DNA from: Microcystis sp. BLCC-F210
GTDB taxonomy: Bacteria; Cyanobacteriota; Cyanobacteriia; Cyanobacteriales; Microcystaceae
Direction of reading: 5' to 3'
Length of the DNA: 64,000 nt
Assembly (NCBI RefSeq): GCF_042134685.1
Contig: NZ_CP169647.1
Span: 1,550,585 to 1,614,584, forward strand
The notes under the pieces were generated by a model, which had not been told where the DNA came from, ran no database searches, and was given only the letters and a program-made list of their open reading frames with translations. Each line of letters opens with the position of its first letter. The stretch's first letter is position 1. A program made the position numbers and the translations under genes. This document shows positions 2,693 to 62,621 of this stretch, in pieces.

Positions 2693-4516
2693 TTGATTTC
2701 AACTATGCAGTTAATTGATTATGTAATTGTGCTGCTCTATCTGGCAGGAACCCTAATAATCGGGATTATAGCCGAGAAAAAAGCTTCTCAAGGTCTAGAA
2801 TCCTACTTTTTAGGTAATCGCAATTTGCCTTGGTGGATGTTAGGGGTGTCGGGAATGGCAGCTAACACCGATTTAGCGGGAACTATGGTCATTTCTGCCC
2901 TAATTTACGCTGTCGGCCCCAAAGGACTATTTATCGAAATCCGCGGCGGTGTCGTCCTAATTATGGCCTTTCTCATGGCTTTTATGGGCAAATGGAATCG
3001 CCGGGCCCAAGTTATGACCATGGCGGAATGGATGAAATTTCGCTTTGGACCGGGAAAACAGGGAAATTTTGCCCGAATTATTAGTGCCGTCGCCACTCTC
3101 TTATTCTCTATCGGTGCGATGAGTTATTTCTCCGTTGCGGGGGGGAAATTTTTAGGGCAGTTTTTGGGTATGGATGATCGTCTTGCTTCGGTGATATTAA
3201 TTCTTTTAACCTTAATTTATACGGTGGCCAGTGGTTTTTATGGTGGGGTAATTACCGATTTATTTCAAGGGTTTCTGATTTTTGTGGCGGTAATTTATGT
3301 ATCGACAGTGGCCTTTTTTACCGTTAATCTTCCCGATAGTTTCACGGTAGCAATTCCGGGGGCAGCAGAGCCAAAAACTTGGAATTTAAGCGACTGGTCT
3401 AGTATTTTCCCCTCCCTGACGTTGGATTTACCCGGAGATTATGCCATCTTTAATTTGTTTGGTGGGGTGATTTTCTTTTATTTAGTTAAAACCATCATCG
3501 AAGGTTGCAGCGGCAGCGGTGGTTATATGTTACAACGATATCTAGCCGCCAAAAGCGATCGAGATGCCGGTTTATTATCTTTATTCTGGATTATTTTGCT
3601 TTCTTTCCGTTGGCCTCTAGTCACAGCTTTTGCGGTTTTAGGTATTCACTACGGTTTAACTGAAGGCACGATCACAGATCCAGAAAGAATTCTGGCCACA
3701 GTGATTACTCAATATATTCCTGTGGGGATGAAAGGGTTATTAATTGCTTCTTTTTTAGCGGCAGCTATGTCCACTTTTAACGCAGTTATTAACGCTAGTG
3801 CTGCCTATTGGGTAAAAGATATCTATCAAGCTTTTTTGAAACCGAATGCGGGAGAACAGGAGTTAGTTTTTCAAGGTCGTTTAGCCTCGATTTTTGTGGT
3901 CGCAATTGGCTTAGTTTTGAGTTTTAATATTGAAAATGTCAATGATATTTGGGGTTGGTTAACCACGGGATTAGGGGTGGGATTAGCAGTTCCTCTCCTA
4001 TTACGTTGGTATTGGTGGCGCTTTAATGGTTATGGTTTTGCTGTGGGAACTTTAGCGGGAATGATTGCGGCTATTGCCTCACAAGCGATAATTTTACCTT
4101 TCTTTCGTCACAGTCAATATCAGGAAATTATTCTCTTTCTTGTGCCGAGTTTGTTCGCTTTAGCTGGCTGTGTTATCGCTACTTTGTTAACTCCTCCCAC
4201 CGATAGTTTAGTCATGGAAAATTTCTATAATGTTACCCGACCCTTTGGCTTTTGGGGAGAAGTCCGTCACAGTGTTAAACCTAACCTACAGGCAAAAATT
4301 AAAGCGGAAAATCAACGGGATATCATCGCCGCTTTTCTCACTGTTCCTTGGCAATTAGTCCTGTTTATGATGGGGATTGTTTTAATCATCAAGCAGTGGC
4401 AAAGTTTGAAGATTTTGGCTTTGGTTTTTCTTTTGCTTTCCATCGGTCTCTATTTTACTTGGTATCGACATTTATCTAAGGAAATTACCGTCACTAAAGA
4501 CCGAGATTTAGGTTAG
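2693..4516 (+). CDS. Sodium:solute symporter (SSS family) permease
   Basis: 607 aa polytopic protein. N-terminus MQLIDYVIVLLYLAGTLIIGIIAEKKA ... YFLGNRNLPWWMLGVSGMAANTDLAGT is typical of SSF transporters. Confidence 0.8.
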   Translation: MISTMQLIDYVIVLLYLAGTLIIGIIAEKKASQGLESYFLGNRNLPWWMLGVSGMAANTDLAGTMVISALIYAVGPKGLFIEIRGGVVLIMAFLMAFMGKWNRRAQVMTMAEWMKFRFGPGKQGNFARIISAVATLLFSIGAMSYFSVAGGKFLGQFLGMDDRLASVILILLTLIYTVASGFYGGVITDLFQGFLIFVAVIYVSTVAFFTVNLPDSFTVAIPGAAEPKTWNLSDWSSIFPSLTLDLPGDYAIFNLFGGVIFFYLVKTIIEGCSGSGGYMLQRYLAAKSDRDAGLLSLFWIILLSFRWPLVTAFAVLGIHYGLTEGTITDPERILATVITQYIPVGMKGLLIASFLAAAMSTFNAVINASAAYWVKDIYQAFLKPNAGEQELVFQGRLASIFVVAIGLVLSFNIENVNDIWGWLTTGLGVGLAVPLLLRWYWWRFNGYGFAVGTLAGMIAAIASQAIILPFFRHSQYQEIILFLVPSLFALAGCVIATLLTPPTDSLVMENFYNVTRPFGFWGEVRHSVKPNLQAKIKAENQRDIIAAFLTVPWQLVLFMMGIVLIIKQWQSLKILALVFLLLSIGLYFTWYRHLSKEITVTKDRDLG

Positions 4517-4780: not shown

Positions 4781-6148
4781 CTAGATTTGATGATTAATTA
4801 CATAAGCTTTAAAAACAGGATTCAAACATAATAAAGCGTTTTCATCTTTTGCCACTATTATTCGTCTGATTAGAGATTGAATGACTTTCAAAGAATCTGT
4901 ATAAGCTAGAGAAGTTTGGTCGATCATTTCTTTAATAGAAATAGGTTGATTAAAATTTGCTAATTCTGTTAGCATTAGTTTCTCTGATTCTGTTAAATTT
5001 TGTAAAATACTTAATAAAGTCTGCTCTAAAGTTTCCTCGGCAATCGGGTATTTAATCTCCAAAAAGTCAGCCACCTTACCTAAAAATGTCTCTTGAATAA
5101 AACTAGCAACTAATTCTAACCAAAGAGGATGACCTTGATAACATTTAATTAAGGCTTCCCAACTGTCTTCATTTAATAGATTATGATGGCGCAAAATTTC
5201 TATGGCATCTTCTCCTAAACCTTCTATGATTAATGTTTTAATGAATTTATTTTTCTGCCCATAAAAAGTCGTATCAATAGGTTTTTCTTGACTCAACAAC
5301 AGTAAACAGCCTTGATGATTGACTTCAGCAATGCTGTTAAACAATAGTTGATAATTTTGGTACTCTTTTTGATAATTACCTGCCAGTTTTTTAGAATCAA
5401 ATAGACTTTGTAAATCATCAAGAATAATCAAGCATCGATGACTTTTCATTAATTGTAAGAACAAATTTAATTGCCTTTCAAGACTTTGAGAAAGCTTCAA
5501 TTGAGGATTGATAGATTGTAAAATTTCACTTAAAAGTTCATCTAGTTTTGGACAAAAATACAAACTTCTGCGAATAACATAGTTAAAATTATCTTTGATT
5601 TTATCAACCAGTTTCAGAGAAAGTGTAGTTTTACCAATTTCTTTTAAACCTAACACATTAACCAAGCGGTATTTGTCTGCAACTATACAAGTTTGCAGGT
5701 TATTTAATTCGGTAATTCTTCCATAAAATTGAGTTATTTCAGGAGTATGACCTAAGTCTAAATAGGGTTGATCCTGCGTGATTTCAGACGGATGATTATT
5801 CTTGAGGGAGGATGGATTATGATCACAAATATGAACATTATTAAAAGAGACTAAATCTCGTCCCATATTATTATTTATGAAACTATGTTTCTTTAAAACT
5901 GCTCTAATATTTGATTTAGTAATATCTTCCCCTAAAACCTCTGACAAAATCTTCCATAATTCTGAAGCAGTATCTCGAACATGACCTTCACTAAGATGAG
6001 ATTCTTTGGCAACTTCTGAGTATTTGTAACCTTCTAAAGTCGCTTCTAAGATAGTTTTTTGAAGATAGTCTAGATGTTGATCTGTTTTGGCAAAAACCAA
6101 CTCATCTAAGAGATTTAACACCGTATTAGATAGATTAGCTTGAAACAT
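4781..6148 (-). CDS. STAND NTPase: N-terminal helical (HTH-like) domain plus NB-ARC module, with no C-terminal repeat sensor
   Basis: Walker A GLKEIGKTTL, Walker B CLIILDD, sensor-like GCLLLLSQE, and a GxP-type motif GHPLWLELVASF. The N-terminal 85 aa (LDYLQKTILEATLEGYKYSEVAKESHLSEGHVRDTASELWKILSEVLGEDITKSNIRAVL) resemble the leader domain found on many cyanobacterial multidomain STAND proteins; this last point is from memory. Confidence 0.7.
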   Translation of the reverse strand: MFQANLSNTVLNLLDELVFAKTDQHLDYLQKTILEATLEGYKYSEVAKESHLSEGHVRDTASELWKILSEVLGEDITKSNIRAVLKKHSFINNNMGRDLVSFNNVHICDHNPSSLKNNHPSEITQDQPYLDLGHTPEITQFYGRITELNNLQTCIVADKYRLVNVLGLKEIGKTTLSLKLVDKIKDNFNYVIRRSLYFCPKLDELLSEILQSINPQLKLSQSLERQLNLFLQLMKSHRCLIILDDLQSLFDSKKLAGNYQKEYQNYQLLFNSIAEVNHQGCLLLLSQEKPIDTTFYGQKNKFIKTLIIEGLGEDAIEILRHHNLLNEDSWEALIKCYQGHPLWLELVASFIQETFLGKVADFLEIKYPIAEETLEQTLLSILQNLTESEKLMLTELANFNQPISIKEMIDQTSLAYTDSLKVIQSLIRRIIVAKDENALLCLNPVFKAYVINHQI

Positions 6149-6594
6149 GGACTATAGATTAGGTATGTGAAGGTAGAGCAGACAGTGATGCAATTCAGAC
6201 TTGAATTGGCGAGTTTTTACGCGATGTGTAACTAAAAACGACAGAATCAGGGTTCCCGATGATACTTTATCACTGCTGATTTCTGAGAGCCTTGTAAATC
6301 AAGACTAAAAATATAGTTGCACACGGGGTAGTTTTTTACTTATTCTAGCTGACATTTCCGATATTTCAGATCAATTGTTTGGCTGTAAGTTCCGACTTTT
6401 CCGACTTACTAAACTCAAGACTGCGATGTATCCTAAGTAATTAAGCAGTTTCAAGGCTTTATTTAGCCAATCTAAAGAAAATGTGAAATAGTACAGGTTC
6501 TAGCATATCACAGTCAGGATGCTTAAGGTGGCTTTAGGCAATGTAGCCCGGGCCGCACGATCAACCAGTACACAAATCAAACGGGGAGGAAAAA

Positions 6595-6981
6595 ATGACA
6601 TCAAGTTCTAAAGAAAATGTCTTAGTTGACAACTGTTTTGGTATTGTAACGAACAAAAGACTTACCTATATGGCGAAGAAAAGCTGGTTTAGTGGTGGAC
6701 GAAGAGAAGATGTTCCTCTCAAGCAAGTTGTTTCAGTTCGATATGAAATGGATAGGAAAGTTGTTGGGGGACTATTCCTTGTTGTTTTAGGAATTGTCTT
6801 GATAACTGTAGTAGTGGGTATTATTCCCTTGATTTTTGGTGTTCTATTGATGTGGGGATCTCCAACGGTAAGTGTGGTTACGGCCGGAGGAACAGCAACT
6901 CCTGTCACTGGATTGCCATGGCAAAAATCAGAAGCAGAGGCGTTTGTAAACGCTGTCCACAGTCAATTATTTGGTGAGTAA
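6595..6981 (+). CDS. Membrane protein with a bacterial PH-like (bPH/DUF304-type) domain
   Basis: GIVTNKRLTYMAKKSWFSGGRREDVPLKQVVSVRYE is followed by a double-TM hydrophobic stretch. It is divergent from the STAND gene, and a GGAGG RBS lies 8 nt upstream. Confidence 0.45.
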   Translation: MTSSSKENVLVDNCFGIVTNKRLTYMAKKSWFSGGRREDVPLKQVVSVRYEMDRKVVGGLFLVVLGIVLITVVVGIIPLIFGVLLMWGSPTVSVVTAGGTATPVTGLPWQKSEAEAFVNAVHSQLFGE

Positions 6982-7070
6982 ATCGAGGGACACAAATTGT
7001 TGAAATTTACTCAATCTTGCTGATACTTTTATAACTTCGGAAAATTAAAAAGTTAGCTGGAGAATTTTTT

Positions 7071-7614
7071 ATGGATTTGGCAAATCGTTTGCTAATAATG
7101 CCTCATTACTTGAGTTGTTTAATTTCATATTTCTTTTTCGGCTCTTCTCGGCTTTGTGTGATAATTTTTGTTTATGGAATCGTGAAATGCTTACTGGACA
7201 AAACTTTTAAGACTATTTTACGGATATTCTATCAGTATAGACCTCGTTTTCACACAGAAACCAGAAGAGCCCTTTTTCTTCTATGGTGTATTACTTGCTG
7301 TTGTTGGGTTATTTGCACGGGAATTAGTTGCCCAAGTCTTTCTAAATTGGCATATACTTATAGTAATATTTTTTCAGTTTCTTTTACAGATGTTTTTAAA
7401 CCAATCATCACAGGAACAACTTCTGATGACTTTGGCCAGAGACATTGCATTATTGGCTTTCGGAATGTTACCAAGTATAGTGCCTACCAGTAATTTTCAA
7501 GAGGGTCTTCTCGTTTTTGTAATTTCGGGATTTTTTATGGTCGGAATCCTTGACTCAGAAGTAGTTAAGAGTTGTGGTACTTTCGAGCAATTGCTTGAAA
7601 TGTTTGGTCGCTAA
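7071..7614 (+). other. ORF(s) behind a duplicated ~75-bp leader: possible degenerate paralog or frameshifted small membrane-protein gene
   Basis: Positions 7003-7080 and 7636-7708 share the leader ...tttactcaatcttgctgatactt...ttagctggagaattttttatggatt(t/g)gg. The frame in register with the leader (7071..7493) gives a Cys-rich, low-complexity product. The overlapping frame 7390..7614 is more hydrophobic and protein-like. Confidence 0.25.
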
Positions 7615-7698
7615 ATAATATAGATTTTTAAGATTTACTCAATCTTGCTGATACTTTCATGACTTTAGAGATTTACAAACTTAGCTGGAGAATTTTTT

Positions 7699-8133
7699 AT
7701 GGATTGGGGAAATGCTTTGAGAAATGTTTACGATGGGATCGTAAAAGCTGTCTCTGTTGGGTTTTCATTGATGGCGATTTATTTGGGATTTTGGGGATTT
7801 TTTGCACAAGATGCTGGAGCAATATCCCTACTATTTATAGTAGGTACTAGCTTGACTATTCTAAGTTATGCTATAACACCTGTACTAGGCTTAAGTTTAG
7901 ATATATCTGCAATTTTAACTGATTTATTGCTTGTTATAGTATCATATTTTGTGGCACATCTTTTTTTATCTGGTGCTTCTTCATATTTCGGAGTTCCCTA
8001 TTCACCATTTCTTGTTAATATAATGTTTTTTGGAGCTATCGTTATGGTTAATCTTCGCCGAATAGCGGAGGTAACTTGTTTACCACAACTTGCACAAATA
8101 TTCAGTTTTTCTATTAATCATTGCCTACGCTAA
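7699..8133 (+). CDS. Small polytopic membrane protein (hypothetical); uses the second copy of the duplicated leader
   Basis: 144 aa with 4 predicted TM segments (AVSVGFSLMAIYLGFWGFF, ISLLFIVGTSLTILSYAITPVLGL ...). Its start codon lies inside the duplicated leader. Confidence 0.5.
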   Translation: MDWGNALRNVYDGIVKAVSVGFSLMAIYLGFWGFFAQDAGAISLLFIVGTSLTILSYAITPVLGLSLDISAILTDLLLVIVSYFVAHLFLSGASSYFGVPYSPFLVNIMFFGAIVMVNLRRIAEVTCLPQLAQIFSFSINHCLR

Positions 8134-8809
8134 TTTTTTTATGACGAATATTTATGTATTCTAATGATAATAAAAGCTCCATATTTAAGGCTTTAACTAA
8201 AGATTACTTTGTTATAAACATCTGCCATCTCTACCTCAATCCTCAAAGATTTTAAAGGAACAATAATGTTGGTTTCATAAGCGGTAAAAAAACAGCGATC
8301 TCGCAGAGATCCGCTTTGCGGTGCGCCTTCTTCTTGAAAATGTTCAATATAACATCGCCAATTGAAGTCTGAATTGGCAGTTATAGTCATTTCAATTAAG
8401 ATTGAGAATATCAATGCTAGAGTTAATCAGGGTTTCATCGGTCTAGAGCGTATCAGACTTATCTGAATTGGCAGTTATCAGTTTACTGTCTTCCCACTCC
8501 CCAATTCATAATTCATAATTCATAATTCCCCAAACCCTCACCGCTCAAGGAATTAGAAGTTTCACAGCATAATTAGGAGAGATCCCTTGACTTTTGCGGC
8601 GGCTTGGCTTATGATTTTCTTATAATGGGACTTTTGTGATCACATTTAAGTTGTTATATTTCCATTATTAGTAAACTCTTTTAAAAATATTGTCCCAAAA
8701 TCTGCCAAAAAAAGCAAGCAAAATTTTGCCGTCAATTGTTAAGTTTGGTTAAGAAAAATAGCAAGAGCGGCAAGGAATATAAATCCCTTACCGTTGACTT
8801 TGGCCGGAC

Positions 8810-9247
8810 TCACCACTTCTTATAGGGTAAAAACTTACCCGACATGGTAATTTTAACGCGATCGCCTTTAGGGTCTTCCTCCTTATCCACGTCGAGGGTA
8901 AAATCGATCGCACTCATAATACCATCGCCGAATTTTTCATGAATTACCGATTTTAGGGGCATTCCATACACCTGCATGATCTCGTAGAAACGATAAATCA
9001 GGGGGTCAGTGGGGACAACCGGACCCAATCCCTTGACAGGATACTCGGTTAAGGAGGGGATGTAGGCTGGTCCCAGTCCCAAAGCTGCCACAATTTTCGT
9101 TGCTTCTTCTGGGGAAGCGCTCGCTTGCCGGTAAAAAACAGCGGCAATCCACACCTCATCTCGTCCTAGAATCGCTTCTAGGTCAGCGAAACTGAGGCCT
9201 TTTTCCTTCTTCGCTTCCAATAGTTTTGCGGTAATTTCGGGTATCAT
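8810..9247 (-). CDS. cynS: Cyanase (cyanate hydratase)
   Basis: 145 aa. The [25 protein letters not shown] and C-terminal [18 protein letters not shown] stretches match the CynS family. Confidence 0.85.
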
Positions 9248-9432: not shown

Positions 9433-10515
9433 ATGACCACCACACTACAACAGCGCGAGAGCGCTTCCCTGTGGGAGCAGTTCTGCCAGTGGATCACCAG
9501 CACCAACAACCGTCTATACATCGGTTGGTTCGGTGTCATCATGATCCCCACCCTGCTCACCGCCACCACCTGCTTCATCATCGCCTTTATCGCCGCTCCT
9601 CCCGTAGATATCGACGGTATCCGCGAGCCTGTAGCTGGTTCTCTACTCTACGGAAACAACATCATCTCCGGTGCAGTTGTTCCCTCCTCCAACGCGATTG
9701 GACTCCACTTCTACCCCATCTGGGAAGCAGCTTCCTTAGATGAATGGTTATACAACGGTGGTCCTTACCAGTTAGTCATTTTCCACTTCTTACTAGGTGT
9801 CTTCTGCTACCTCGGTCGTCAGTGGGAACTGTCTTTCCGTTTAGGAATGCGTCCTTGGATTTGTGTAGCTTACTCTGCACCTGTATCCGCCGCTACTGCT
9901 GTATTCTTAATCTACCCCATCGGACAAGGTTCCTTCTCTGATGGTATGCCTTTAGGAATCTCTGGAACCTTTAACTTTATGTTCGTGTTCCAAGCAGAAC
10001 ATAACATCCTGATGCACCCCTTCCATATGTTAGGCGTTGCTGGTGTGTTCGGCGGTTCCTTGTTCAGTGCCATGCACGGTTCCCTAGTAACTTCTTCCTT
10101 AGTGCGTGAAACCACTGAAATCGAATCTCAGAACTACGGTTACAAATTCGGTCAAGAAGAAGAAACCTACAATATCGTTGCCGCTCACGGTTACTTCGGA
10201 CGTTTAATCTTCCAATACGCTTCTTTCAACAACAGCCGTTCTCTGCACTTCTTCTTGGGTGCATGGCCGGTAATCGGTATCTGGTTTACGGCAATGGGTG
10301 TTAGCACCATGGCGTTTAACCTCAATGGTTTTAACTTCAACCAGTCGATTCTCGATTCTCAAGGTCGTGTAATCGGTACTTGGGCCGATGTGTTAAACCG
10401 CGCTGGTATCGGTATGGAAGTAATGCACGAGCGCAATGCTCACAACTTCCCCTTAGATTTGGCTAGTGGTGAACAGGCTCCTGTAGCTCTGATTGCTCCC
10501 GCTATCAATGGTTAA
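9433..10515 (+). CDS. psbA: Photosystem II D1 protein
   Basis: 360 aa, the full canonical D1 sequence ([24 protein letters not shown] ... [13 protein letters not shown]) with a C-terminal processing extension. Confidence 0.97.
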
Positions 10516-10604: not shown

Positions 10605-10820
10605 ATGATTAGTTTAGAACAAGCTTTAAATACTGTTGAGCAACTATCTTTAGAACAACAGGAAATGTTATTAGAAATTTTACAAAATCGTTTACTTGAT
10701 ATTCGCCGTCAAGAAATTGCCAGAGATGCTAGGGAGTCAATTAATGCTTTTCATCAAGGAGAATTTAAACCTCAACCCCTAGAAATTATTCTGAGAGAAT
10801 TGAGAGAAACTTTAGAATAG
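10605..10820 (+). CDS. Type II antitoxin partnered with a RelE/YafQ-type toxin
   Basis: 71 aa acidic helical protein. It sits 5 bp upstream of the toxin gene and is paralogous in arrangement to 14345..14554. Confidence 0.55.
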   Translation: MISLEQALNTVEQLSLEQQEMLLEILQNRLLDIRRQEIARDARESINAFHQGEFKPQPLEIILRELRETLE

Positions 10821-10825
10821 ATATT

Positions 10826-11107
10826 ATGAGAGAACTGGTTTTAACGCCTAAATTTAAGCGGACTTTCCATAAGTTTGTTCTCAGAAATCCTCAACGACAG
10901 AAAGCGATTGAGAAGACATTGGCACAAATGAGGGAAGATATTTATTTTTTGAGCTTGGGAACTCATTCATTAAGAGGGGAATTATCGGGACTTAAAGCTT
11001 GTTCTTGCGGTTATGATTGTCGGATTATTTTTTCTATAAAAATTGAGCCAGACACCCAGAAGGAAGTTATAGTCATTTCAAATAAGTGTGAGACGAGGGA
11101 AAAATAA
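10826..11107 (+). pseudogene. RelE/YafQ-family toxin gene whose 3' end was severed by IS630 insertion
   Basis: KFKRTFHKFVLRNPQ ... ACSCGYDCRIIFSIKIEP...EVIVI is a RelE/YafQ signature. The last 9 codons (SNKCETREK) are read from the IS630 terminus. The authentic 3' end (...LLDIGTHDEVY*) lies at 14085..14126, immediately after the IS630 right end. Confidence 0.6.
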
Positions 11108-11394
11108 GGTAAAATGAAGAGAAACGAGCAATCCATACAGAAAAATGTCTTATAGCCTAGACTTGAGAAAAAAAGTGATCGATTATGTAGAGAATGGGGG
11201 AAGCATAACCAAAGCCGCCGCTCTATTTAATATAGGAAGAGCGACGATATATAGATGGCTAGGTAGGGAAAAACTGGAAGCAACAAAGGTAAAACACCGT
11301 CAGAGAAAGCTGGACTGGAAAGCACTGTCAAAAGATGTCCAAGAAAATCCCGAGGCAAGATTAAGAGACAGAGCCGAGAAGTTTGGGAGCATCT

Positions 11395-11566
11395 CACTTA
11401 CGCGATGAGTAATTATACTTAGCCTAAAAGCCACTCTTAATCGTGTCTTGGAACGAAATAGAGGCTTTTAAAGACCGCGTACATGGAGAATTAAAACAAG
11501 AATTACCCTCGAAAAGCCTATTTTTCTACTAAGTATTTATGCTTATTGCAAAGGTGAGATGCTCCC
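11395..11566. mobile_element. MITE (family G: TIR GGGAGCATCTCAC, 8-bp TSD) inside the IS630 transposase gene
   Basis: 13-bp perfect TIRs GGGAGCATCTCAC/GTGAGATGCTCCC. Flanking direct repeat AGAAGTTT (11387-11394 and 11567-11574). A near-identical copy is at 42274..42455. Confidence 0.7.
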
Positions 11567-11887
11567 AGAAGTTTGGAGTGAGACCAAGTGCCATTTGCTA
11601 TGCCTTAAAAAAAATGAAAATTACCAGAAAAAAGAAGGAACTTCGTTATAGAGAAAGAAACCGAGAAGAAAGAATGAAATACTACAGAGTGCTGAGAGAA
11701 TTGATTAAAAAATATGGAAGTGAAAGCCTTGTATTTATTGATGAGTCAGGGTTTGAAGAATTTCAAGCCTGCCTTTATGCTTGGTCAAAAAAAGGTAAGA
11801 AAGTATTGGGAGATAGACAAGGAAAACGAGGAAAAAGAGAAAACCTTGTCGCCGGGAGAAGAAAGGGAAAAAAAGACTTTATTGCAC

Positions 11888-13752
11888 CAGCAATTCTCAT
11901 TTTGAAATAAATAGAGCATTAACCCCGATTTTGGCAGGGAAAATATAGTACGAAGCAACTATTTTCTAGAAGAGGCGAACAATAAAAAAAACAATTGGCT
12001 AGACAAATTAAGTATAAATACTCAAGCAATCAAAGAGGTTGGCTGAGAACGAACGGGGTTAAATCAGGAAGATAGTTCTGTTTTTAGAATAGGGAATTCA
12101 AGGGAAATAAAAATTTATAATTATTGTCAGCTAAGGTAAAATGGGTGAGATAGAAATCCACCAGCACGTCAAATTATTCCAAGATGGCTCAAAAAGCGGC
12201 AACCCTAGAAATTTCGGAATTAATGCAATTTTTCCATCAAGAATTAGATGATTTACCCGATGAGAGGAAACCTGGAAATAATAGAAAATATGAGATAAAA
12301 GATGCCGTGATGGCTGCATTTTCAGTCTTTTTTACTCAGTCGCCGTCTTTTTTAGACCATTAACGTTTAATGAAAAGCAATAAGGGAAAAGATAATGCTG
12401 AAAGTTTATTTTCAATTAAAAAAATTCCTGGGGATAATCAAATAAGAAATTTGTTAGATCCAGTGCCAGCATCTAATATCTCTAGGACTTTTCAAAAAGT
12501 CTATGAATGGTTAAAAGAAAAGGGAGTTTTGAAAAAGTTTCTCTACTTAGATGGAGAAATATTAGTGGCGTTAGATGGCACAGAATATTTCTCATCCAAG
12601 AAAATTAATTGCCCTCATTGTAACTGTCGTAATCATCGAAATGGAACTACAACTTATTTTCATGGCTGTGTCACACCGATAGTAGTTTCTCCTAAGCAAA
12701 AACAAGTAATTAATTTAGAGCCAGAATTCATTAAAAAACAAGATGGATATCAAAAACAAGACTGTGAAAATGCGGCCGTTAAAAGATGGTTAAATAGGAA
12801 TCATAAAAATAAGTATGGTTATCCTGTAACTCTTTTAGGAGACGACTTATATTCTCACGAACCTGTTTGTGAATTAGCGATAAAACAAGGTTATAATTTT
12901 ATTTTTGTTTGTTTGGAAACGTCGCATAAAACTTTATATGAATGGCTAGAATTTTTAGAAAAAAGTGGCGAAGTTAGGACCGTTGAAAAGAAACAATGGG
13001 ATGGACGAAAAAATCTAATTTATCGTTATCGTTATGCTTCTAGAGTTCCCTTAAGAGAGGGGGACTCAAGTCTCGAAGTTAATTGGTGTGAAGTGACTGT
13101 TATTAATGAAAAAACCCAGAAAACTATCTACCAAAATAATTGGATAACTAATCATAAAATCAAGGAAAATAATGTCGAAGAAATTGTCAAAGCTGGACGT
13201 AGCAGATGGAAAGTTGAAAATGAAGGCAATAACGTTCTTAAAAATCACGGTTATAATTTAGAGCATAACTTTGGTCACGGTCAGAATCATTTGTGCGAGT
13301 TCTTATTGTCTTTGAATTTACTAGCTTTTTTATTTCATACCGTGTTGGATTTAGTTAATTACACCTATCAAAAGATTCGTGAGCTATTAGTAACTAGGAC
13401 TTCTTTCTTTAATGATATTCGTACCCTATTAAAATTTATTTGGTTTAAGAATTGGTCGGAATTTTCTCATTTATTCTAACCGAATATGTCCCATTTAAAA
13501 AAGTAGATTCTAGTTGAAAATGTCAGAACTCTTGAAGGAGAAAAAGAAAATTGTTTATAAAAAAACTAAAAATTTTGTTAGAATTTCATCCAGATTTATG
13601 AGTTGAAATCGATTTTTCGTGGACAAAGTTCTTAAAACCTGTATATCTCCAGCGTTGGATGATAATTATCTGTCAAAAAATAATGCTTCTACACAAGTTC
13701 TCTATTTAAATAAGAGAATTTTATCTGATTTTTTTCAAAATGAGAATTGCTG
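11888..13752 (+). mobile_element. CA-ended IS (IS4-family-like), copy 1; transposase inactivated by a nonsense codon
   Basis: 20-bp TIRs CAGCAATTCTCATTTTGAAA / TTTCAAAATGAGAATTGCTG. 9-bp flanking repeat TTAT(T/C)GCAC. The 5' leader of ~295 bp is shared with the copies at 16517 and 18293..20353. Confidence 0.65.
12184..13479 (+). pseudogene. Transposase of the CA-ended IS with a premature TAA (CAA>TAA at 12361) relative to the intact copy 18528..19862
   Basis: Residues 1-59 (MAQKAATLEISEL...SFLDH) are read 12184..12360, then a stop. The remainder (12370..13479) matches the intact copy colinearly. Confidence 0.6.
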
Positions 13753-14084
13753 TTATCGCACCGATGGTATTTACGAGAAGCCTGAATGCCGAAGGTTTTG
13801 AAGGGTGGTTATCTTTATATTTATTGCCCTCTCTAACCATAACATCAGTATTAATTATGGATAATGCACCAATTCATCGGAAGACAGTCATTAAACAACT
13901 GGTAGAAGAAGCAGGTCATCAGGTAGTGTTTTTGCCAAAATACTCTCCTGATTTAAATGATATCGAACATGATTTTAGTGCATTAAAGAGGGCAAGAATG
14001 TATGCTCCTGTGGGGACAACCCTTGATGAAATTATTCGTACTTATTGTGTCGCCTAGTGTCTCGTTCTTATTTGAAATAACTAT

Positions 14085-14344: not shown

Positions 14345-14554
14345 ATGATGACTTTGCAAGAAATGATCAAATCTTTTGAGAATTTATCAGAGGATGAACA
14401 AGAGTCATTGTTAGAGATTTTGTGTCAATATAGAGCCAAAGCAAGAGAAAGAGAAATTTTAGCTAATTTTAAGGAATTGAAACAGGCGATCGCTGCTGGA
14501 ACGGCCAGAAGGGGAACCGTAGAAGATTTGATTGCTGATTTGAATGAGGATTAA
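14345..14554 (+). CDS. Type II antitoxin of the second RelE-type TA module
   Basis: 69 aa helical acidic protein. Its stop is 2 bp before the toxin start. Confidence 0.55.
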   Translation: MMTLQEMIKSFENLSEDEQESLLEILCQYRAKAREREILANFKELKQAIAAGTARRGTVEDLIADLNED

Positions 14555-14556
14555 CA

Positions 14557-14844
14557 ATGGATCTAATATGGAGTGATGGGTTTAAGCGTTCGTTTAAGAA
14601 GCTAATCAAGAAAAATTCCCAGTTAAAACCTAAAATTTTCGATGTACTTAGAAAACTGGCAGAAGACCCATTTACACTGTCTTTAAAAACCCATAAGTTA
14701 AGTGGTAATTTAGAAGGGTTATGGTCTTGTACTGTAGCTTACGATTGTCGAATTATTTTTAGTTTTTCGGAAGATGGAGAATATTTAGAAGTTATCATCT
14801 TGTTAATTGATATTGGTAGTCACGATCAGGTGTATAGAAAATAG
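14557..14844 (+). CDS. RelE/YafQ-family toxin (intact paralog)
   Basis: 95 aa. FKRSFKKLIKKNSQLKPKIFDVL ... SCTVAYDCRIIFSFSEDGEYLEVIILLIDIGSHDQVYRK. Confidence 0.65.
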   Translation: MDLIWSDGFKRSFKKLIKKNSQLKPKIFDVLRKLAEDPFTLSLKTHKLSGNLEGLWSCTVAYDCRIIFSFSEDGEYLEVIILLIDIGSHDQVYRK

Positions 14845-14913: not shown

Positions 14914-16393
14914 TTCCCAATCGTTAGGATTTATTTTAAGATAGGATTTAAACACAGGATTAATAGGAAAATAGGACGAGGTTTCTGATGGTAATTTATC
15001 CATTAAACAGCGTCTCATTAATGATTGAATAGCTGCCCAAAATTGGGATTGAGAAAGGTCAAGATTAGCAGTTTTGGGAAATTTTTCTACCGCTTCAGTT
15101 TGATTAGCTAACCAGTGCATCACCTTTTTTTCTGTTGCGGATAAACGCTGTAAATGACATTCGATCGAGTTTTCTATAAGTAGTCGTGCAAAATTAATTT
15201 CCTAGTCAAGATAGGCAAAAGGCAAGAGGCAGGAGGCAAGAGGTGGTTAGATATGTGTAATTAATTTTGCTTAGGTACTTATCCCCTAAATAAATTTCAT
15301 TGTTCATTTGTTCTAAAAATAAGGATACTTCTCCATCAAATAGTTCAATAATGGTTGAGGAGATGATATTTAACCAGTTAGGATGACCTTGATAAAGTTC
15401 CCTCAGTTCTGTCCATTTATCCTCGTTTTTTAAACCGTATTCTTTGAAGATTTCTTCAAATTCTGTTATTAAACCTTGCAGGTATAAAGTTTTAATTTTA
15501 TCGGATTTTAAGGTGACAAAATCTCTGGGAAGTTCCCAACTAATTAAAATTAAACAATTTTGATGAGATGTGGTAGCGATTTGCTGAAAAAATTTATGAT
15601 AATCCTGACAGTCGCTTAAATATTTACCTGCTAATTCCCCCAGTTTAAAAATATTCTGCACATCATCAAGAATAATTAAACAACGATAGGAGCTTAGATA
15701 ATCTATTATATCGGGTAAGGGGGTTGATAGAGATTGGTTGAAAAACTGTTTTAGATCATCTTTGAGAGCGATTAATTGAGGAATATTTTCCAGACTGCGA
15801 TAAATAATATAATCAAATTGTGTGGCAATTTCTGAAATTAATTTAAAGGTTAAAGCTGTTTTTCCAATTCCAGTTAACCCATAAATAGTAATTAATCGAG
15901 TTTTATTATCTAGCCATTCTTTTAAGGTTGATATTTCTACCTTACGTCCATAGTTATACCTTAATTCTGAGGCTTTTGTTAGGTCAATTATTGGGTATTG
16001 ATGATCATTATCTGGAAAATTTGAAGACTTTTTTAAGTTTTTTTCTGAGTAAGGGTTATTTTCTCTACAGATATTAATGCGACTGTTACTAATGTTATTA
16101 CTGTTAGGAGAGTTAACAAAGTGATAAATAATAGATGAAGCTTTATTTTATAAAATAGAACGAACATTAGACTTTTTTATATCTTCTTCAAAAACATCTG
16201 ATAGCAGTTGCCATAATTTCCATGCTTCTTTTTTTATATGGTCATAACTGCGCTGATTATCTTTGGCAATTTCTTCGTAATCTTGATGTTCCCAAATACC
16301 CTGTAAGATGGATTCTTGCAATGAATCAAGATGTTTACCGGTTTTCTCTAATACCTGTTTATCTGTCCATTCTAAAAGGGTTTGAATATCCAT
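14896..16393 (-). pseudogene. Decayed paralog of the NB-ARC STAND NTPase (N-terminal leader domain, P-loop, C-terminus in at least 3 frames)
   Basis: 16148..16393 encodes the N-domain paralog (…DYEEIAKDNQRSYDHIKKEAWKLWQLLSDVFEEDIKKSNVRSIL) and ends in a premature TAA. The reverse complement of 15846-15899 encodes RLITIYGLTGIGKTALTF (Walker A). 15206..15661 and 14896..15123 (…FPINPVFKSYLKIN) match the C-terminal parts of 4781..6148. Confidence 0.55.
15175..15288. repeat. Dispersed ~110-bp repeat (family K: aggcaaaaggcaagagg array plus ttagatatgtgtaattaattttgcttaggtac)
   Basis: Near-identical inverted copy at 62106..62210. Diverged partial copy at 52421..52500. Confidence 0.5.
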
Positions 16394-16516: not shown

Positions 16517-16992
16517 CAGCAATTCTCATTTTGAAATAAATAGAGCATTAACCCCGATTTTGGCAGGGAAAATATAGTACGAAGCAACTATTTTCTAGAA
16601 GAGGCGAACAATAAAAAAAACAATTGGCTAGACAAATTAAGTATAAATACCCAAGCAATCAAAGAGGTTGGCTGAGAACGAACAGGGTTAAATCAGGAAG
16701 ATAGTTCTGTTTTTAGAATAGAGAATTCAAGGGAAATAAAAATTTATAATTATTGTCAGCTAAGGTAAAATGGGTGAGATAGAAATCCACCAGCACGTCA
16801 AATTATTCCAAGATGGTTCAAAAAGCGGCAACCCTAGAAATTTCGGAATTAACGCAATTTTTACATCAAGAATTAGATGATTTACCCGATGAGAGGAAAC
16901 CTGGAAATAATAGAAAATATGAGATAAAAGATGCCGTGATGGCTGCATTTTCAGTCTTTTTTACTCAGTCGCCGTCTTTTTTAGACCATCAG
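16517..16992 (+). mobile_element. CA-ended IS, copy 2 (5' fragment only), truncated by the ISAs1-family insertion
   Basis: Begins with CAGCAATTCTCATTTTGAAA and encodes transposase residues 1-60 (16813..). Homology stops at ...FLDHQ, where the ISAs1-family sequence begins. Confidence 0.6.
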
Positions 16993-18292
16993 GGTAAGAG
17001 CATCTCAATTAGGCTTGACAAAAGGCTTTCAGCACAGCCATCATATAGTTATTATCCATGGCCGCCCGTTTACTTTTTTGTGCCAGACTACGTCGGTAAG
17101 TGGATTCCTGGTTAAGAGCGTTAAGTGCTACTCGTCTCAAGAAGGCTCCCATTACGAGGGCTGTGGCCCGAGCGAATCCGACATTTATCTTCATTAAAAG
17201 TAACATCTAAAATCCAATGAGCCTGATTTTCAATGCCCCAATGTTTACGAATAGCATTACCTATTTTTTGAGCATCAGCAGGGAGAGAACTGAGATAGAA
17301 TTGGACTTCACAAGTGGTTTTATTCCAAAGATGACGAACTCGTTTAACCATGATAATACTTTGAAGTCCTTGCCATTGAGCCTGTTGATAAAGACCGCCG
17401 AAAGCTTCTAAGGGTACAGCCCAACACCAACATTTTTCGAGACGATGATGACCCTTTTCCAGACGGTAATCATAACTAAATTGAATACCATCAAATTGAT
17501 GTGCTTGAGCTTGCTCAAACCAGTTTTTGACCTGAGTATAAAGAGTCGGATGATTAGCTTTAAGGGCGACAACGTAGTTAGCTTTTTTGGCTTGAATATG
17601 ATTAATAATCGCCGTTTGAGTTCCCATAGCATCAAGGGTGATAATTGCCCCTTGAAGGTCTAATAGTTCTAATAAAGCGGGAATAGCGGTAATCTCATTG
17701 GATTTATCTTCCACCTTGACTTGTCCTAAAACTAATTTCTGCTCCCCCGCCCAAGCCGTCACTAAATGCAAGGCTTTAATTCCTTGATTACGGTCGTAAG
17801 AACCTCTGAGACTTTTCCCATCTATGGGAACTATTTCCCCCGAAAGAGAACCGATTAAATGGGGCAGCCATTGAGACAAAACTTTGGTCAAAGCTTCCGG
17901 GTTAATCCGTTCAAAAACCCGCCGAAAAGTATCATCAGAAGGAATGCCATTAGGTAATTCTAAAAACTCAGATAACCAAGACTGCTTACTGAGTCCATAA
18001 TTTTCCATATCTTCCCAACCTTCGGCTCCTGCTATAACTGCTAAAATAGCAATGACTAAAATATCGGTTAATAAATGTTTTTGGGTTCGGGACACTCTCG
18101 GGTCAGGAATATCTTGAAGATAAGTCAATAAACTAGCTTGAATTTCATTGATTGATGTTAAAGGAAGCTCAGGTTTTAGTTGAGCTTTATTTCCGGTGGG
18201 AAGAACGGGAGCAAAACCTTTCCCCATGAGCTATTTCCTCGCTAATTTTCATGAACAACAGTGAGACTAAGGCTAATTATAAATTATACAGA
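16993..18292 (-). mobile_element. ISAs1-family insertion sequence (boundaries approximate)
   Basis: It lies between the broken IS copy 2 and the right TIR of IS copy 3. Imperfect terminal repeats fall around caattaggcttgac (17015) / gactaaggctaatt (18256). Confidence 0.5.
17121..18227 (-). CDS. ISAs1-family DDE transposase
   Basis: 368 aa. The C-terminal KHWGIENQAHWILDVTFNEDKCRIR is the hallmark of the ISAs1 / H-repeat transposase family. Confidence 0.75.
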   Translation of the reverse strand: MGKGFAPVLPTGNKAQLKPELPLTSINEIQASLLTYLQDIPDPRVSRTQKHLLTDILVIAILAVIAGAEGWEDMENYGLSKQSWLSEFLELPNGIPSDDTFRRVFERINPEALTKVLSQWLPHLIGSLSGEIVPIDGKSLRGSYDRNQGIKALHLVTAWAGEQKLVLGQVKVEDKSNEITAIPALLELLDLQGAIITLDAMGTQTAIINHIQAKKANYVVALKANHPTLYTQVKNWFEQAQAHQFDGIQFSYDYRLEKGHHRLEKCWCWAVPLEAFGGLYQQAQWQGLQSIIMVKRVRHLWNKTTCEVQFYLSSLPADAQKIGNAIRKHWGIENQAHWILDVTFNEDKCRIRSGHSPRNGSLLETSST

Positions 18293-29340: not shown

Positions 29341-29412
29341 GCGGGCATAGCTCAGTGGTAGAGCGTCACCTTGCCAAGGTGAATGTCGCGCGTTCGAATC
29401 GCGTTGCCCGCT
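29341..29412 (+). tRNA. tRNA-Gly (GCC)
   Basis: Acceptor GCGGGCA/TGCCCGC. Anticodon stem TCACC/GGTGA with loop TTGCCAA. T-arm GTTCGAATC. No encoded CCA. Confidence 0.85.
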
Positions 29413-61857: not shown

Positions 61858-62105
61858 GAGTCAATAGTTAGTGTATCGGTAAAAATGACTTTCTAGAGTA
61901 TCTCGCTCAGATGAATAGTCCTTAGTGCGTTACCCTGCTAAAACTTGAAGGCTAACTACATATTATAGGTCAACTTTCTGTATAAAACTCTGCAGCGTAA
62001 CGATATGGCTCTTCTGGTTTCTGTGTGGAAACGGGGTCTATACTGATAGTTTGTTCAGCAAAATAGTCCTAAAAGTCTTTCCAGGTAAATATTTCACGAT
62101 TCTAA

Positions 62106-62210
62106 GTACCTAAGCAAAATTAATTACACATATCTAACCCCCTCTTGCCTTTTGCCTCTTGCCTTTTGCCTATCTTTACTAGGAAATTAATTTTGCACGA
62201 CTACTTATAA
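62106..62210. repeat. Dispersed repeat family K, inverted copy
   Basis: Reverse complement matches 15175..15288 at about 93% identity. Confidence 0.5.
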
Positions 62211-62621
62211 GCAAAAATTATCACACAAAGTCGAGAAGAGCCACGATATGGGTCAACTTTCGGTATAACAATCCATTTAGGCGCAATCGCCGGAACTTTT
62301 CCCTATATCACCCCCAAAAGCCTGTTAGCCAGATTAGCATATTGCCAAAAACCTTGTTTAACTAAATTCCTGACAATTTAGGCTCATTCTAGCGATAATT
62401 CCTCTGTCTGACCACACCCCTTGACAAAAATTTATAATTATTCGACCTTTAGCGATCGCTATCAGGGGATAGTTGTTTTTTGTTACAGCAGTGGGGAGAA
62501 GGGAGCGGGTTTTTCAAGTGGGATTGGCAGTTAATCATACTATTAAAAACCGATTCAGTATAATGAACCCGTTATGCCGTGTCCCTACAGATAGAATTCA
62601 ACGGCTCTAGCATTCGGCGCG

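Follow-up and report, generated by a model that had tools for sequence, protein, structure and literature searches.

An HTH-STAND NTPase gene of Microcystis as a probable autoregulated DNA-binding switch beside a strain-variable cassette

Positions 4781–8133 of a 64,000-nt stretch of Microcystis sp. BLCC-F210 (contig NZ_CP169647.1, positions 1,550,585–1,614,584; hereafter the window) carry a gene for a compact STAND NTPase of 455 amino acids (aa) and, divergent from it, a gene for a bPH-like membrane protein followed by two small genes, A and B. The question raised by this arrangement is whether the NTPase and its neighbours form a defence system, as the first-pass annotation of the window had proposed, or whether the NTPase has a task of its own. 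The literature treats STAND/NLR-type ATPases mostly as immune sensors, and to our knowledge few of them are known as transcription factors (MalT, AfsR and GutR). The evidence presented below favours the latter kind of role: the NTPase is probably an autoregulated, nucleotide-gated DNA-binding switch, built of a helix-turn-helix (HTH) domain and a nucleotide-binding oligomerisation domain (NOD), devoid of a sensor arm and AfsR/MalT-like in its working. The features concerned are the following.

4781–6148, minus strand: intact HTH-STAND NTPase gene, 455 aa (from the open reading frame (ORF), Pfam and an AlphaFold2 (AF2) model)
about 5885–6148, minus strand: HTH_VMAP-M9 domain (PF26355), residues ~6–87, taken to be a sigma-4/LuxR-like HTH
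NTPase residues 89–125: linker, low-confidence in the model, with C108 conserved
4784–5743, minus strand: NB-ARC-type NOD, residues ~136–455, comprising the nucleotide-binding domain (NBD), helical domain 1 (HD1) and the winged-helix domain (WHD)
6166–6329, no strand: 164-nt insertion between the promoter and the NTPase ATG, 17 nt upstream of the ATG
6342–6404, minus strand: candidate operator/promoter of the NTPase gene, three direct TCGGAA units and a -10-like TAGAAT

The product matches the "ATPase" of Microcystis sp. BLCC-F210 at 100% identity and proteins of M. aeruginosa at 99%. It had been described at first as a repeat-less protein with Walker A and B motifs, a GxP motif and a winged helix, and the ORF, the NB-ARC score and the AF2 model all agree with that description. 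The residues of Walker A (G167-LKEI-G172-K173-T174) and Walker B (CLIILD244-D245) as well as the GxP motif (G339-H-P341) are conserved, being invariant across 18 and 102 homologues, and the Pfam NB-ARC model matches residues 151–259 with 26.5 bits against a cut-off of 23.5. A profile search of PDB with the NTPase family placed the NB-ARC domains of the plant CC-NLR proteins Sr35, ZAR1 and MLA13 closest (2e-9 to 1e-6), with AfsR among the weak matches to the NOD. The AF2 model (pLDDT 83.4) shows NBD, HD1 and WHD alone, and the term "repeat-less" is right because nothing follows the winged helix; Foldseek searches with this model returned plant resistosomes, Apaf-1, CED-4 and the repeat-less archaeal ATPase_2, with MalT (8bob) also listed. 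Neither Pfam nor the model revealed a recognisable effector domain (nuclease, protease, TIR etc.), a C-terminal sensor or repeats. The same layout is the norm in hundreds of cyanobacterial homologues of 453–480 aa, and the family is expanded in filamentous cyanobacteria, with many paralogs per genome. By sequence, the 455-aa ATPase is thus a member of a large cyanobacterial family of compact, sensor-less, NLR-like STAND proteins.

The N-terminal helical domain, estimated at ~85 aa in the first-pass annotation, corresponds to HTH_VMAP-M9, which covers the N-terminal ~88 aa according to precomputed Pfam matches for this exact protein and all its homologues, and is all-helical in a structural model. 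VMAP-M9 was first defined as one of the variable middle domains in vWA-MoxR conflict systems (Kaur et al. 2020, PMC7159879). The domain is present in 1263 representative proteins, and the best 150 representatives in a search with it were all ~455-aa members of the NTPase family or fragments thereof, save one 541-aa metagenomic protein (P0165); the latter contains five tandem HTH_VMAP-M9 copies, a layout that would suit tandem direct repeats. A model of residues 1–95 (pLDDT 86) compared by Foldseek gave region 4 of extracytoplasmic function (ECF) sigma factors, including that of sigmaE on -35 DNA (2h27), and TraR, GerE, LiaR and EvgA, with a probability of 0.9–0.97 and a root-mean-square deviation of 2–3 Å over ~60–65 residues; nearly all of the top 50 structures were of the sigma-4 or LuxR type. 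A search of PDB with the domain profile gave LuxR/GerE-type HTHs alone (E 0.4–1.3), and the other weak sequence matches were to TIGR02937 (sigma70-ECF, E 0.005) and GerE/DesR (E 0.4–0.6). The best-conserved part of the domain is the recognition helix. Moreover, in a relative encoded next to a bPH-like gene, an Xre-type HTH replaces HTH_VMAP-M9 on a homologous NOD (26% identity, E 1e-22), which fits a DNA-binding role of the N-terminal position. On the basis of these models, the N-domain is taken to be an HTH of the sigma-4/LuxR class.

A candidate cognate DNA element was found in the promoters of the family. When the k-mers of 400-nt regions upstream of family genes (n = 76) were compared with those of control regions (n = 69), GTCGGAAA occurred in 34 family regions and in no control, and TCGGAAA in 39 family regions as opposed to 0–1 controls; the orientation of the latter was almost uniform, with 76 sense occurrences and one antisense. 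The family promoter consensus is TGTCGGAAATGTCGGAAAGATCGGATATAAT, i.e., TCGGAA-N17-TATAAT with fixed positions, and the promoters aligned on the -10 box read ...TGTCGGAA-ATGTCGGAA-AGATCGGATATAAT. Each array consists of 2–7 direct units at 9–11-nt spacing, plus a distal pair 34–43 nt upstream; one unit lies exactly 17 nt upstream of TATAAT, i.e., in the -35 position, and the arrays abut the -10 box, which is located ~28 nt before the ATG. Of 69 arrays in 1.2 Mb of loci, 51 sit at the promoters of the family itself. The possibility that the arrays mark a regulon of neighbouring genes was considered and rejected, as they are almost confined to the family's own promoters.

In the window, the 5' ends of the TCGGAA units are at 6404, 6395 and 6361 (spacing of 9 and 34 nt), and 8 nt further on follows TAGAAT (6347–6342), which was also picked as a -10 box by a promoter scan; the stretch from the last unit to the -10 box is TCGGAA-ATGTCAGC-TAGAAT. 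This is the only three-unit TCGGAA cluster in the 64 kb, where a two-unit cluster at 936–973 falls inside a coding region and no array precedes bPH, A or B. The triple is shared by other Microcystis alleles and by Crocosphaera. In Crocosphaera and in the Microcystis alleles encoding 456/457 aa it is located at -92, -83 and -49/-50, while in the window allele it is pushed to -256, -247 and -213 by the 164-nt insertion. L090, L003 and L006 share this insertion with the window allele, whereas the Microcystis alleles of the 456/457-aa type lack it, as is normal in the family; on the gene's sense strand it contains a terminator-like hairpin (6260–6246) and the hairpin CAATTCAAGTCTGAATTG. The insertion might attenuate expression of the NTPase gene. 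The first-pass annotation had named a regulator-type N-domain with mapped targets as a finding that would speak against defence: this is partly the case, as the domain is taken to be a sigma-4/LuxR-type HTH and the repeats in the gene's own promoter are its candidate target.

Loci without TCGGAA show the same promoter layout with other repeat units, and the unit varies with the residues at positions 56, 58 and 59 of the encoded protein, which form the start (first turns) of the recognition helix, as follows.

residues 56/58/59 HRD: unit TCGGA, 33 of 34 loci
residues 56/58/59 HRN: unit TCA[GT]A, 11 of 13 loci
residues 56/58/59 YRV/YRI: unit GTTA[TG], 15 of 15 loci
residues 56/58/59 HKN: unit GTACG, 2 of 6 loci

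In the intact Microcystis copy of the paralog that is a pseudogene in the window (see below), a recognition helix with SESHIKK is accompanied by GGTAC repeats ending in GGTATAAT. A NOD-only tree shows the HTH/operator classes interleaved, and paralogs of one genome are usually of different classes. Near-identical NODs joined to different HTH/operator classes were observed within the same genomes for L010/L017, L036/L088 and L050/L056/L070. Such a distribution suggests gene conversion of the NOD, with private promoter-HTH modules retained.

The analysis in silico shows how the domains fold, how the promoter arrays are built and how the repeat unit corresponds to the recognition-helix residues; DNA binding, nucleotide gating, the sign of regulation and any regulon beyond the gene itself are inferred. 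The HTH would probably recognise short direct repeats (here TCGGAA) in the promoter of its own gene, in arrays that extend over the -35 position and the spacer as far as the -10 box. The repeats could be bound by several protomers side by side, and the nucleotide state of the NOD would set the oligomeric state, so that occupancy would depend on the latter. The most likely default effect is autorepression, since the core promoter, from the -35 position through the spacer to the edge of the -10 box, is taken up by the sites; activation by sigma adaptation, as with AfsR, is a possible alternative.

A different explanation of the same arrays is that they are read by another factor, e.g., an ECF sigma, and that the N-domain is a protein-protein or sensor module rather than a DNA binder. 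ECF sigma factors use GGAAC-like -35 elements, and the distal units are often TCGGAACTTTT, like ECF -35 boxes. VMAP-M domains have been proposed as sensors (PMC7159879), and inheritance of promoter and 5' coding end as one block is able to explain the class match. Against this, the unit changes in step with the recognition-helix residues of the encoded protein in four classes, up to 5–7 tandem units run into the -10 box, unlike a single -35 box, and it is the recognition helix that is the most conserved part of the N-domain. We regard the reading by another factor as improbable.

Several observations weigh against an autoregulated switch. The Foldseek E-values are weak (0.3–1.7) for the small N-domain, and its match to Sigma70_r4_2 is below the cut-off (E 0.015). 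Kaur et al. view VMAP-M domains as variable sensor modules, not as heads of transcription factors (PMC7159879). About one third of the loci, chiefly of the HKN class with some others, are without a clear array under simple criteria, and in the window allele the insertion with its terminator-like hairpin parts the promoter from the ATG. Independent covariation would be stronger evidence than the class match, because the promoter adjoins the 5' coding end; block inheritance, which contributes to the association, or recombination alone would cause the two to segregate together. The family is also without the sensor-I arginine (TTR/TSR), having S-[QW]-E288-K-P (SQEKP/SWEKP) instead, and without the MHD histidine, L-N443-P occupying this position of the WHD; both residues are clade hallmarks of NB-ARC, not strict requirements, and since they are missing, nucleotide handling by the family may be atypical.

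A wider proposal, which we put forward tentatively and hold as somewhat less probable than its opposite, is that a private code of direct repeats, read through residues 56/58/59 (HRD with TCGGA, HRN with TCAGA or TCATA, YRV with GTTAT, and H-K-N/K with GTAC), ties each HTH_VMAP-M9-NOD paralog to its own promoter. The proteins would then constitute an undescribed class of minimal NLR-like transcription switches, forming several insulated nucleotide-gated autoregulatory circuits per genome, coupled in some lineages to a divergent bPH gene as input or output.

The closest known systems resemble the NTPase in part. The first of them is AfsR and the large SARPs, in which, as proposed here for the NTPase, a DNA-binding domain at the N-terminus precedes an NB-ARC-type NOD. 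In SARP/AfsR promoters the direct repeats overlap the -35 element and the 3' repeat is 8 bp from the -10 box (PMC10936776). The last TCGGAA of the window is also 8 nt from TAGAAT, a resemblance of function only. AfsR has an OmpR-type winged HTH and a BTAD domain, whereas the NTPase has a probable sigma-4/LuxR-like HTH and no Pfam match to Trans_reg_C, BTAD or TPR; AfsR (~990 aa) bears a C-terminal TPR arm, whereas the NTPase with its 455 aa has no sensor arm. SARP repeats recur every 11 or 22 bp, those of the NTPase family mostly every 9–11 nt, and AfsR acts on other genes (afsS), while the only target detected for the NTPase is its own promoter.

The second system is MalT and the LAL family, in which a STAND NTPase is joined to an HTH of the LuxR/sigma-4 class, as it probably is here. 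MalT undergoes ATP-dependent oligomerisation and binds cooperatively to arrays of asymmetric MalT boxes in direct repeat. However, the HTH of MalT/LAL proteins is C-terminal and that of the NTPase N-terminal, the SUPR/TPR sensor arm with which MalT binds maltotriose has no counterpart in the NTPase, and the NOD of the latter is by sequence nearer to NB-ARC/AP-ATPases than to MalT. The NTPase is a member of neither the AfsR/large SARP nor the MalT/LAL family. A domain census has listed cyanobacterial r4_2*NB-ARC*TPR_MalT proteins (the "SigR" pattern), in which an r4_2-like domain is N-terminal to NB-ARC, and gives no cis element or function for them (PMC11119718). These proteins carry TPR_MalT repeats and score as Sigma70_r4_2, whereas the NTPase family is repeat-less and sub-threshold on that model.

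STAND transcription regulators are a kind already known; new here are the code of promoter repeats and the way in which it corresponds to the recognition helix. In a cyanobacterial family of hundreds of members, a minimal NOD is combined with a sigma-4-like HTH and a promoter code that can be read. If the proposed mechanism is true, the family would provide a simple means of following the step from nucleotide-driven oligomerisation to DNA occupancy, and natural orthogonal protein-operator pairs for cyanobacterial synthetic biology; it would also advise caution in calling compact STAND genes in variable islands defence genes by context alone.

The genes on the other side of the candidate operator have to be considered next, since the defence interpretation rests on them. 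For the window, the analysis corrected the model of the small genes, one of which is disrupted by a miniature inverted-repeat transposable element (MITE), and revealed the locus as a mosaic. In the following list, TM stands for transmembrane.

6511–8526, no strand: strain-variable cassette (bPH, A, B and an Uma2 remnant), replaced in other Microcystis
6595–6981, plus strand: 128-aa membrane protein, bPH-like; weak bPH_3, with a two-helix TM hairpin interrupting the domain
6996–7091, plus strand: leader copy 1, comprising a promoter-like region, GGAG, ATG and the first 7 codons of gene A
7071–7614, plus strand: gene A, small multi-TM protein, 134 aa when intact; split into a 5' part (7071–7139) and a 3' part (7272–7614) in another frame
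7140–7271, no strand: MITE, 132 nt, with 25-nt terminal inverted repeats that are 80% complementary
7624–7719, plus strand: leader copy 2, 84% identical to copy 1
7699–8133, plus strand: gene B, 144-aa multi-TM protein, a Microcystis-only orphan
8190–8357, minus strand: Uma2-family remnant, 50% identical to residues 94–141 of the intact copy in other strains

All Microcystis contigs with exact copies of bPH or B show the same arrangement. However, in Microcystis strains with a 99%-identical NTPase (P0006), a gene for a 267-aa lipoprotein-like product and an intact Uma2 gene are found in place of the cassette, so that the P0006 allele occurs both with bPH-A-B and with the lipoprotein/Uma2 pair. 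Homology to the latter strains breaks at position 6510 of the window and resumes at 8527, and on the other side of the NTPase gene they carry a 1.1-kb insertion with a HicB-like gene and a gene for a 311-aa protein. Outside Microcystis, the best 80 of at least 553 relatives were examined (no Microcystis being among these 80), and no conserved neighbour of the NTPase family was found in these loci of other cyanobacteria. The commonest neighbours were Uma2 (15 of 80 loci), followed by HicA/B, and no homologue of bPH, A or B was present within 8 kb in any of the 80. Since the NTPase occurs without bPH in these loci and the same allele occurs without the cassette, it does not need bPH. Our comparisons show that bPH, A and B are a strain-variable cassette inserted by the NTPase gene, not obligatory partners, and that the locus is a mosaic. 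In terms of the questions left by the first-pass annotation, the region is variable, as had been suspected, with a cassette that swaps between strains and surroundings rich in toxin–antitoxin (TA) genes, insertion sequences (IS) and Uma2, and the order NTPase-bPH-A-B is not shared by all Microcystis strains with this NTPase.

The bPH gene was also followed on its own. Eight contexts of its homologues (50–66% identical) were examined outside Microcystis, one of them ending at a contig end, and in three of the eight the gene is divergent from an NB-ARC-type STAND gene. The three partners are a 455-aa HTH_VMAP-M9 STAND protein, 33% identical to the window NTPase and separated from bPH by three inserted TA pairs, the above-mentioned 423-aa STAND protein with the Xre HTH_3 domain and a NOD homologous to that of the window (L114 3284–4555), and a 793-aa EAD4-NB-ARC-TPR protein (L124 2215–4596). 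In a fourth context, a NACHT protein with C-terminal TM helices is encoded 1.6 kb upstream (L116 1339–3414), and other homologues have no STAND neighbour. No conserved motif was detected upstream of bPH genes across lineages beyond the ribosome-binding site, and downstream of bPH each lineage has unrelated genes. A 97-aa two-TM protein is encoded after bPH in L113, L116, L117 and L124. The affinity between bPH and STAND genes is suggestive but unproven, and a functional link between the two may exist.

These contexts bear on the interpretation of the locus as a two-part abortive-infection or defence module, in which the STAND protein would sense an invader and activate or induce the divergent bPH/2-TM protein, leading to membrane damage, with A and B as accessory genes. 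The recurrent divergence of bPH from STAND genes speaks for it, as do the strain-variable TA-, IS- and Uma2-rich surroundings and the many NTPase paralogs per genome, as in conflict systems. The NTPase also resembles Avs/bNACHT proteins and the conflict STANDs of Kaur and Aravind in its NOD core, its expansion in filamentous cyanobacteria, its location in variable TA-rich DNA and the VMAP-M9 origin of its N-domain. It differs from Avs/bNACHT in having no effector, no C-terminal sensor and no significant PADLOC match, and in having a probable HTH with a candidate cognate promoter array. PADLOC, recommended at the outset as a check, yielded no known defence model for the locus: the NTPase matched PDC-S27 only, by the P-loop alone (E 1.6e-5, 22 bits), bPH, the ORF 7071–7493 and B had no match, and a 74-aa ORF at 7390–7614 gave a below-noise PDC-S01 match (E 0.026). 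A search of PHROGs gave no match for the genes of the locus, and known defence or family models were discarded as candidates for them, as PADLOC, PHROGs and NCBIfam provided no significant assignment. The dispensability of bPH, seen from the 80 family loci and from the same NTPase allele without the cassette, the bPH homologues with no STAND nearby, the unrelated genes downstream of bPH, the lack of a shared motif or TCGGAA array before the small genes, the restriction of B to Microcystis and the disruption of A in the window all argue against such a module, which we consider unlikely. The variable TA/IS-rich setting and the bPH-STAND divergence in three lineages support the original defence reading in part, while the missing PADLOC model, the lack of conserved partners and the HTH nature of the N-domain count against it. 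An autoregulated HTH-NOD switch remains the preferred explanation.

The small genes themselves required some revision. The divergent gene had been taken for that of a PH-domain membrane protein; sub-threshold bPH_3 matches occur in 23 of 31 homologues (best E 0.0015), but the bPH call for the 128-aa protein itself is weak (E 0.011, 16.6 bits against a cut-off of 23). This family comprises 40 clusters with invariant REDxP and PW motifs. Also reported at first were two small ORFs with a duplicated leader. The leader duplication is real: the two copies are 84% identical over 96 nt and include exact cores of 25 and 24 nt, where none would be expected by chance, but the first ORF (7071–7493), called as 140 aa, is an artefact and not a gene product, since gene A, encoding 134 aa in other strains, is split here by the MITE. 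The 139 extra nt in the window consist of the 132-nt element and a 7-bp target duplication, CTTTTTC (7133–7139 and 7272–7278), and the site is empty in other strains (L004, L090). A second, longer copy of ~236 nt is located at 62007–62242 on the minus strand, with one mismatch in 22 nt of the terminal repeat and an internal extra segment of ~105 nt. The terminal inverted repeats, the target duplication and the second copy together identify the element as a MITE disrupting gene A.

The 25-nt core of the leader is confined to this locus, in the window and in metagenomes, and in the latter it is always paired, 489–492 nt apart; the leader is therefore not a dispersed element. As an RNA element it found no match in Rfam, which reported a distant tRNA only. 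A and B are not paralogs (BLASTP E 4), their products being alike only over the first ~7 codons, and B could not be assigned to a family in Pfam, PADLOC and NCBIfam searches. A 29-nt inverted repeat, 86% complementary and present in two copies only in the window, brackets bPH-A-B and was considered as a candidate for the ends of the cassette; its left arm (6191–6219) is inside the 164-nt insertion and its right arm (8348–8376) abuts the truncated end of the Uma2 remnant.

The decayed STAND paralog noticed by the first-pass annotation near a TA module and IS elements was recovered as follows.

14938–16381, minus strand: NTPase pseudogene paralog, 39% identity over residues 9–364

Its lesions are one in-frame stop near 16147 and one frameshift near 15200–15300. 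In M. panniformis FACHB-1757 the paralog is intact (456 aa), and its promoter bears GGTAC-type repeats. In the window the pseudogene adjoins a YafQ/ParE-type TA pair and nested IS630/IS4-type elements. Together with the MITE in A, the 164-nt leader insertion, the Uma2 remnant and the nested IS, it could suggest that decaying accessory genes have come together by chance in a hypervariable island and that the NTPase is at present without a function in this strain. Such decay does not extend to the NTPase gene, whose ORF is intact and 99–100% conserved over many Microcystis assemblies, with all catalytic motifs and family-invariant residues kept, and we think it very improbable that the gene is functionless.

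Housekeeping genes flank the locus, encoding a sodium:solute symporter (2693–4516), cyanase (8810–9247) and psbA (9433–10515). Further on are two small two-gene modules with the look of an antitoxin and a YafQ/ParE/RelE-type toxin (10605–11107 and 14345–14844). The toxin of the 14345–14844 module matches YafQ_toxin (9.8e-11), while that of the 10605–11107 module had no Pfam match in the window scan, its counterpart in related loci having a weak precomputed YafQ_toxin match. Between the modules, an IS630-family transposase gene (HTH_Tnp_IS630 and DDE_3, 11145–14057) is interrupted by a second IS nested within it, which has a DDE_Tnp_1 transposase (12184–13479), and a partial copy of this inner IS at 16760–17115 is itself cut by an IS4-like element (17121–18227). 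The sole Rfam match at the gathering threshold within the window is a tRNA gene at 29341–29412 on the plus strand.

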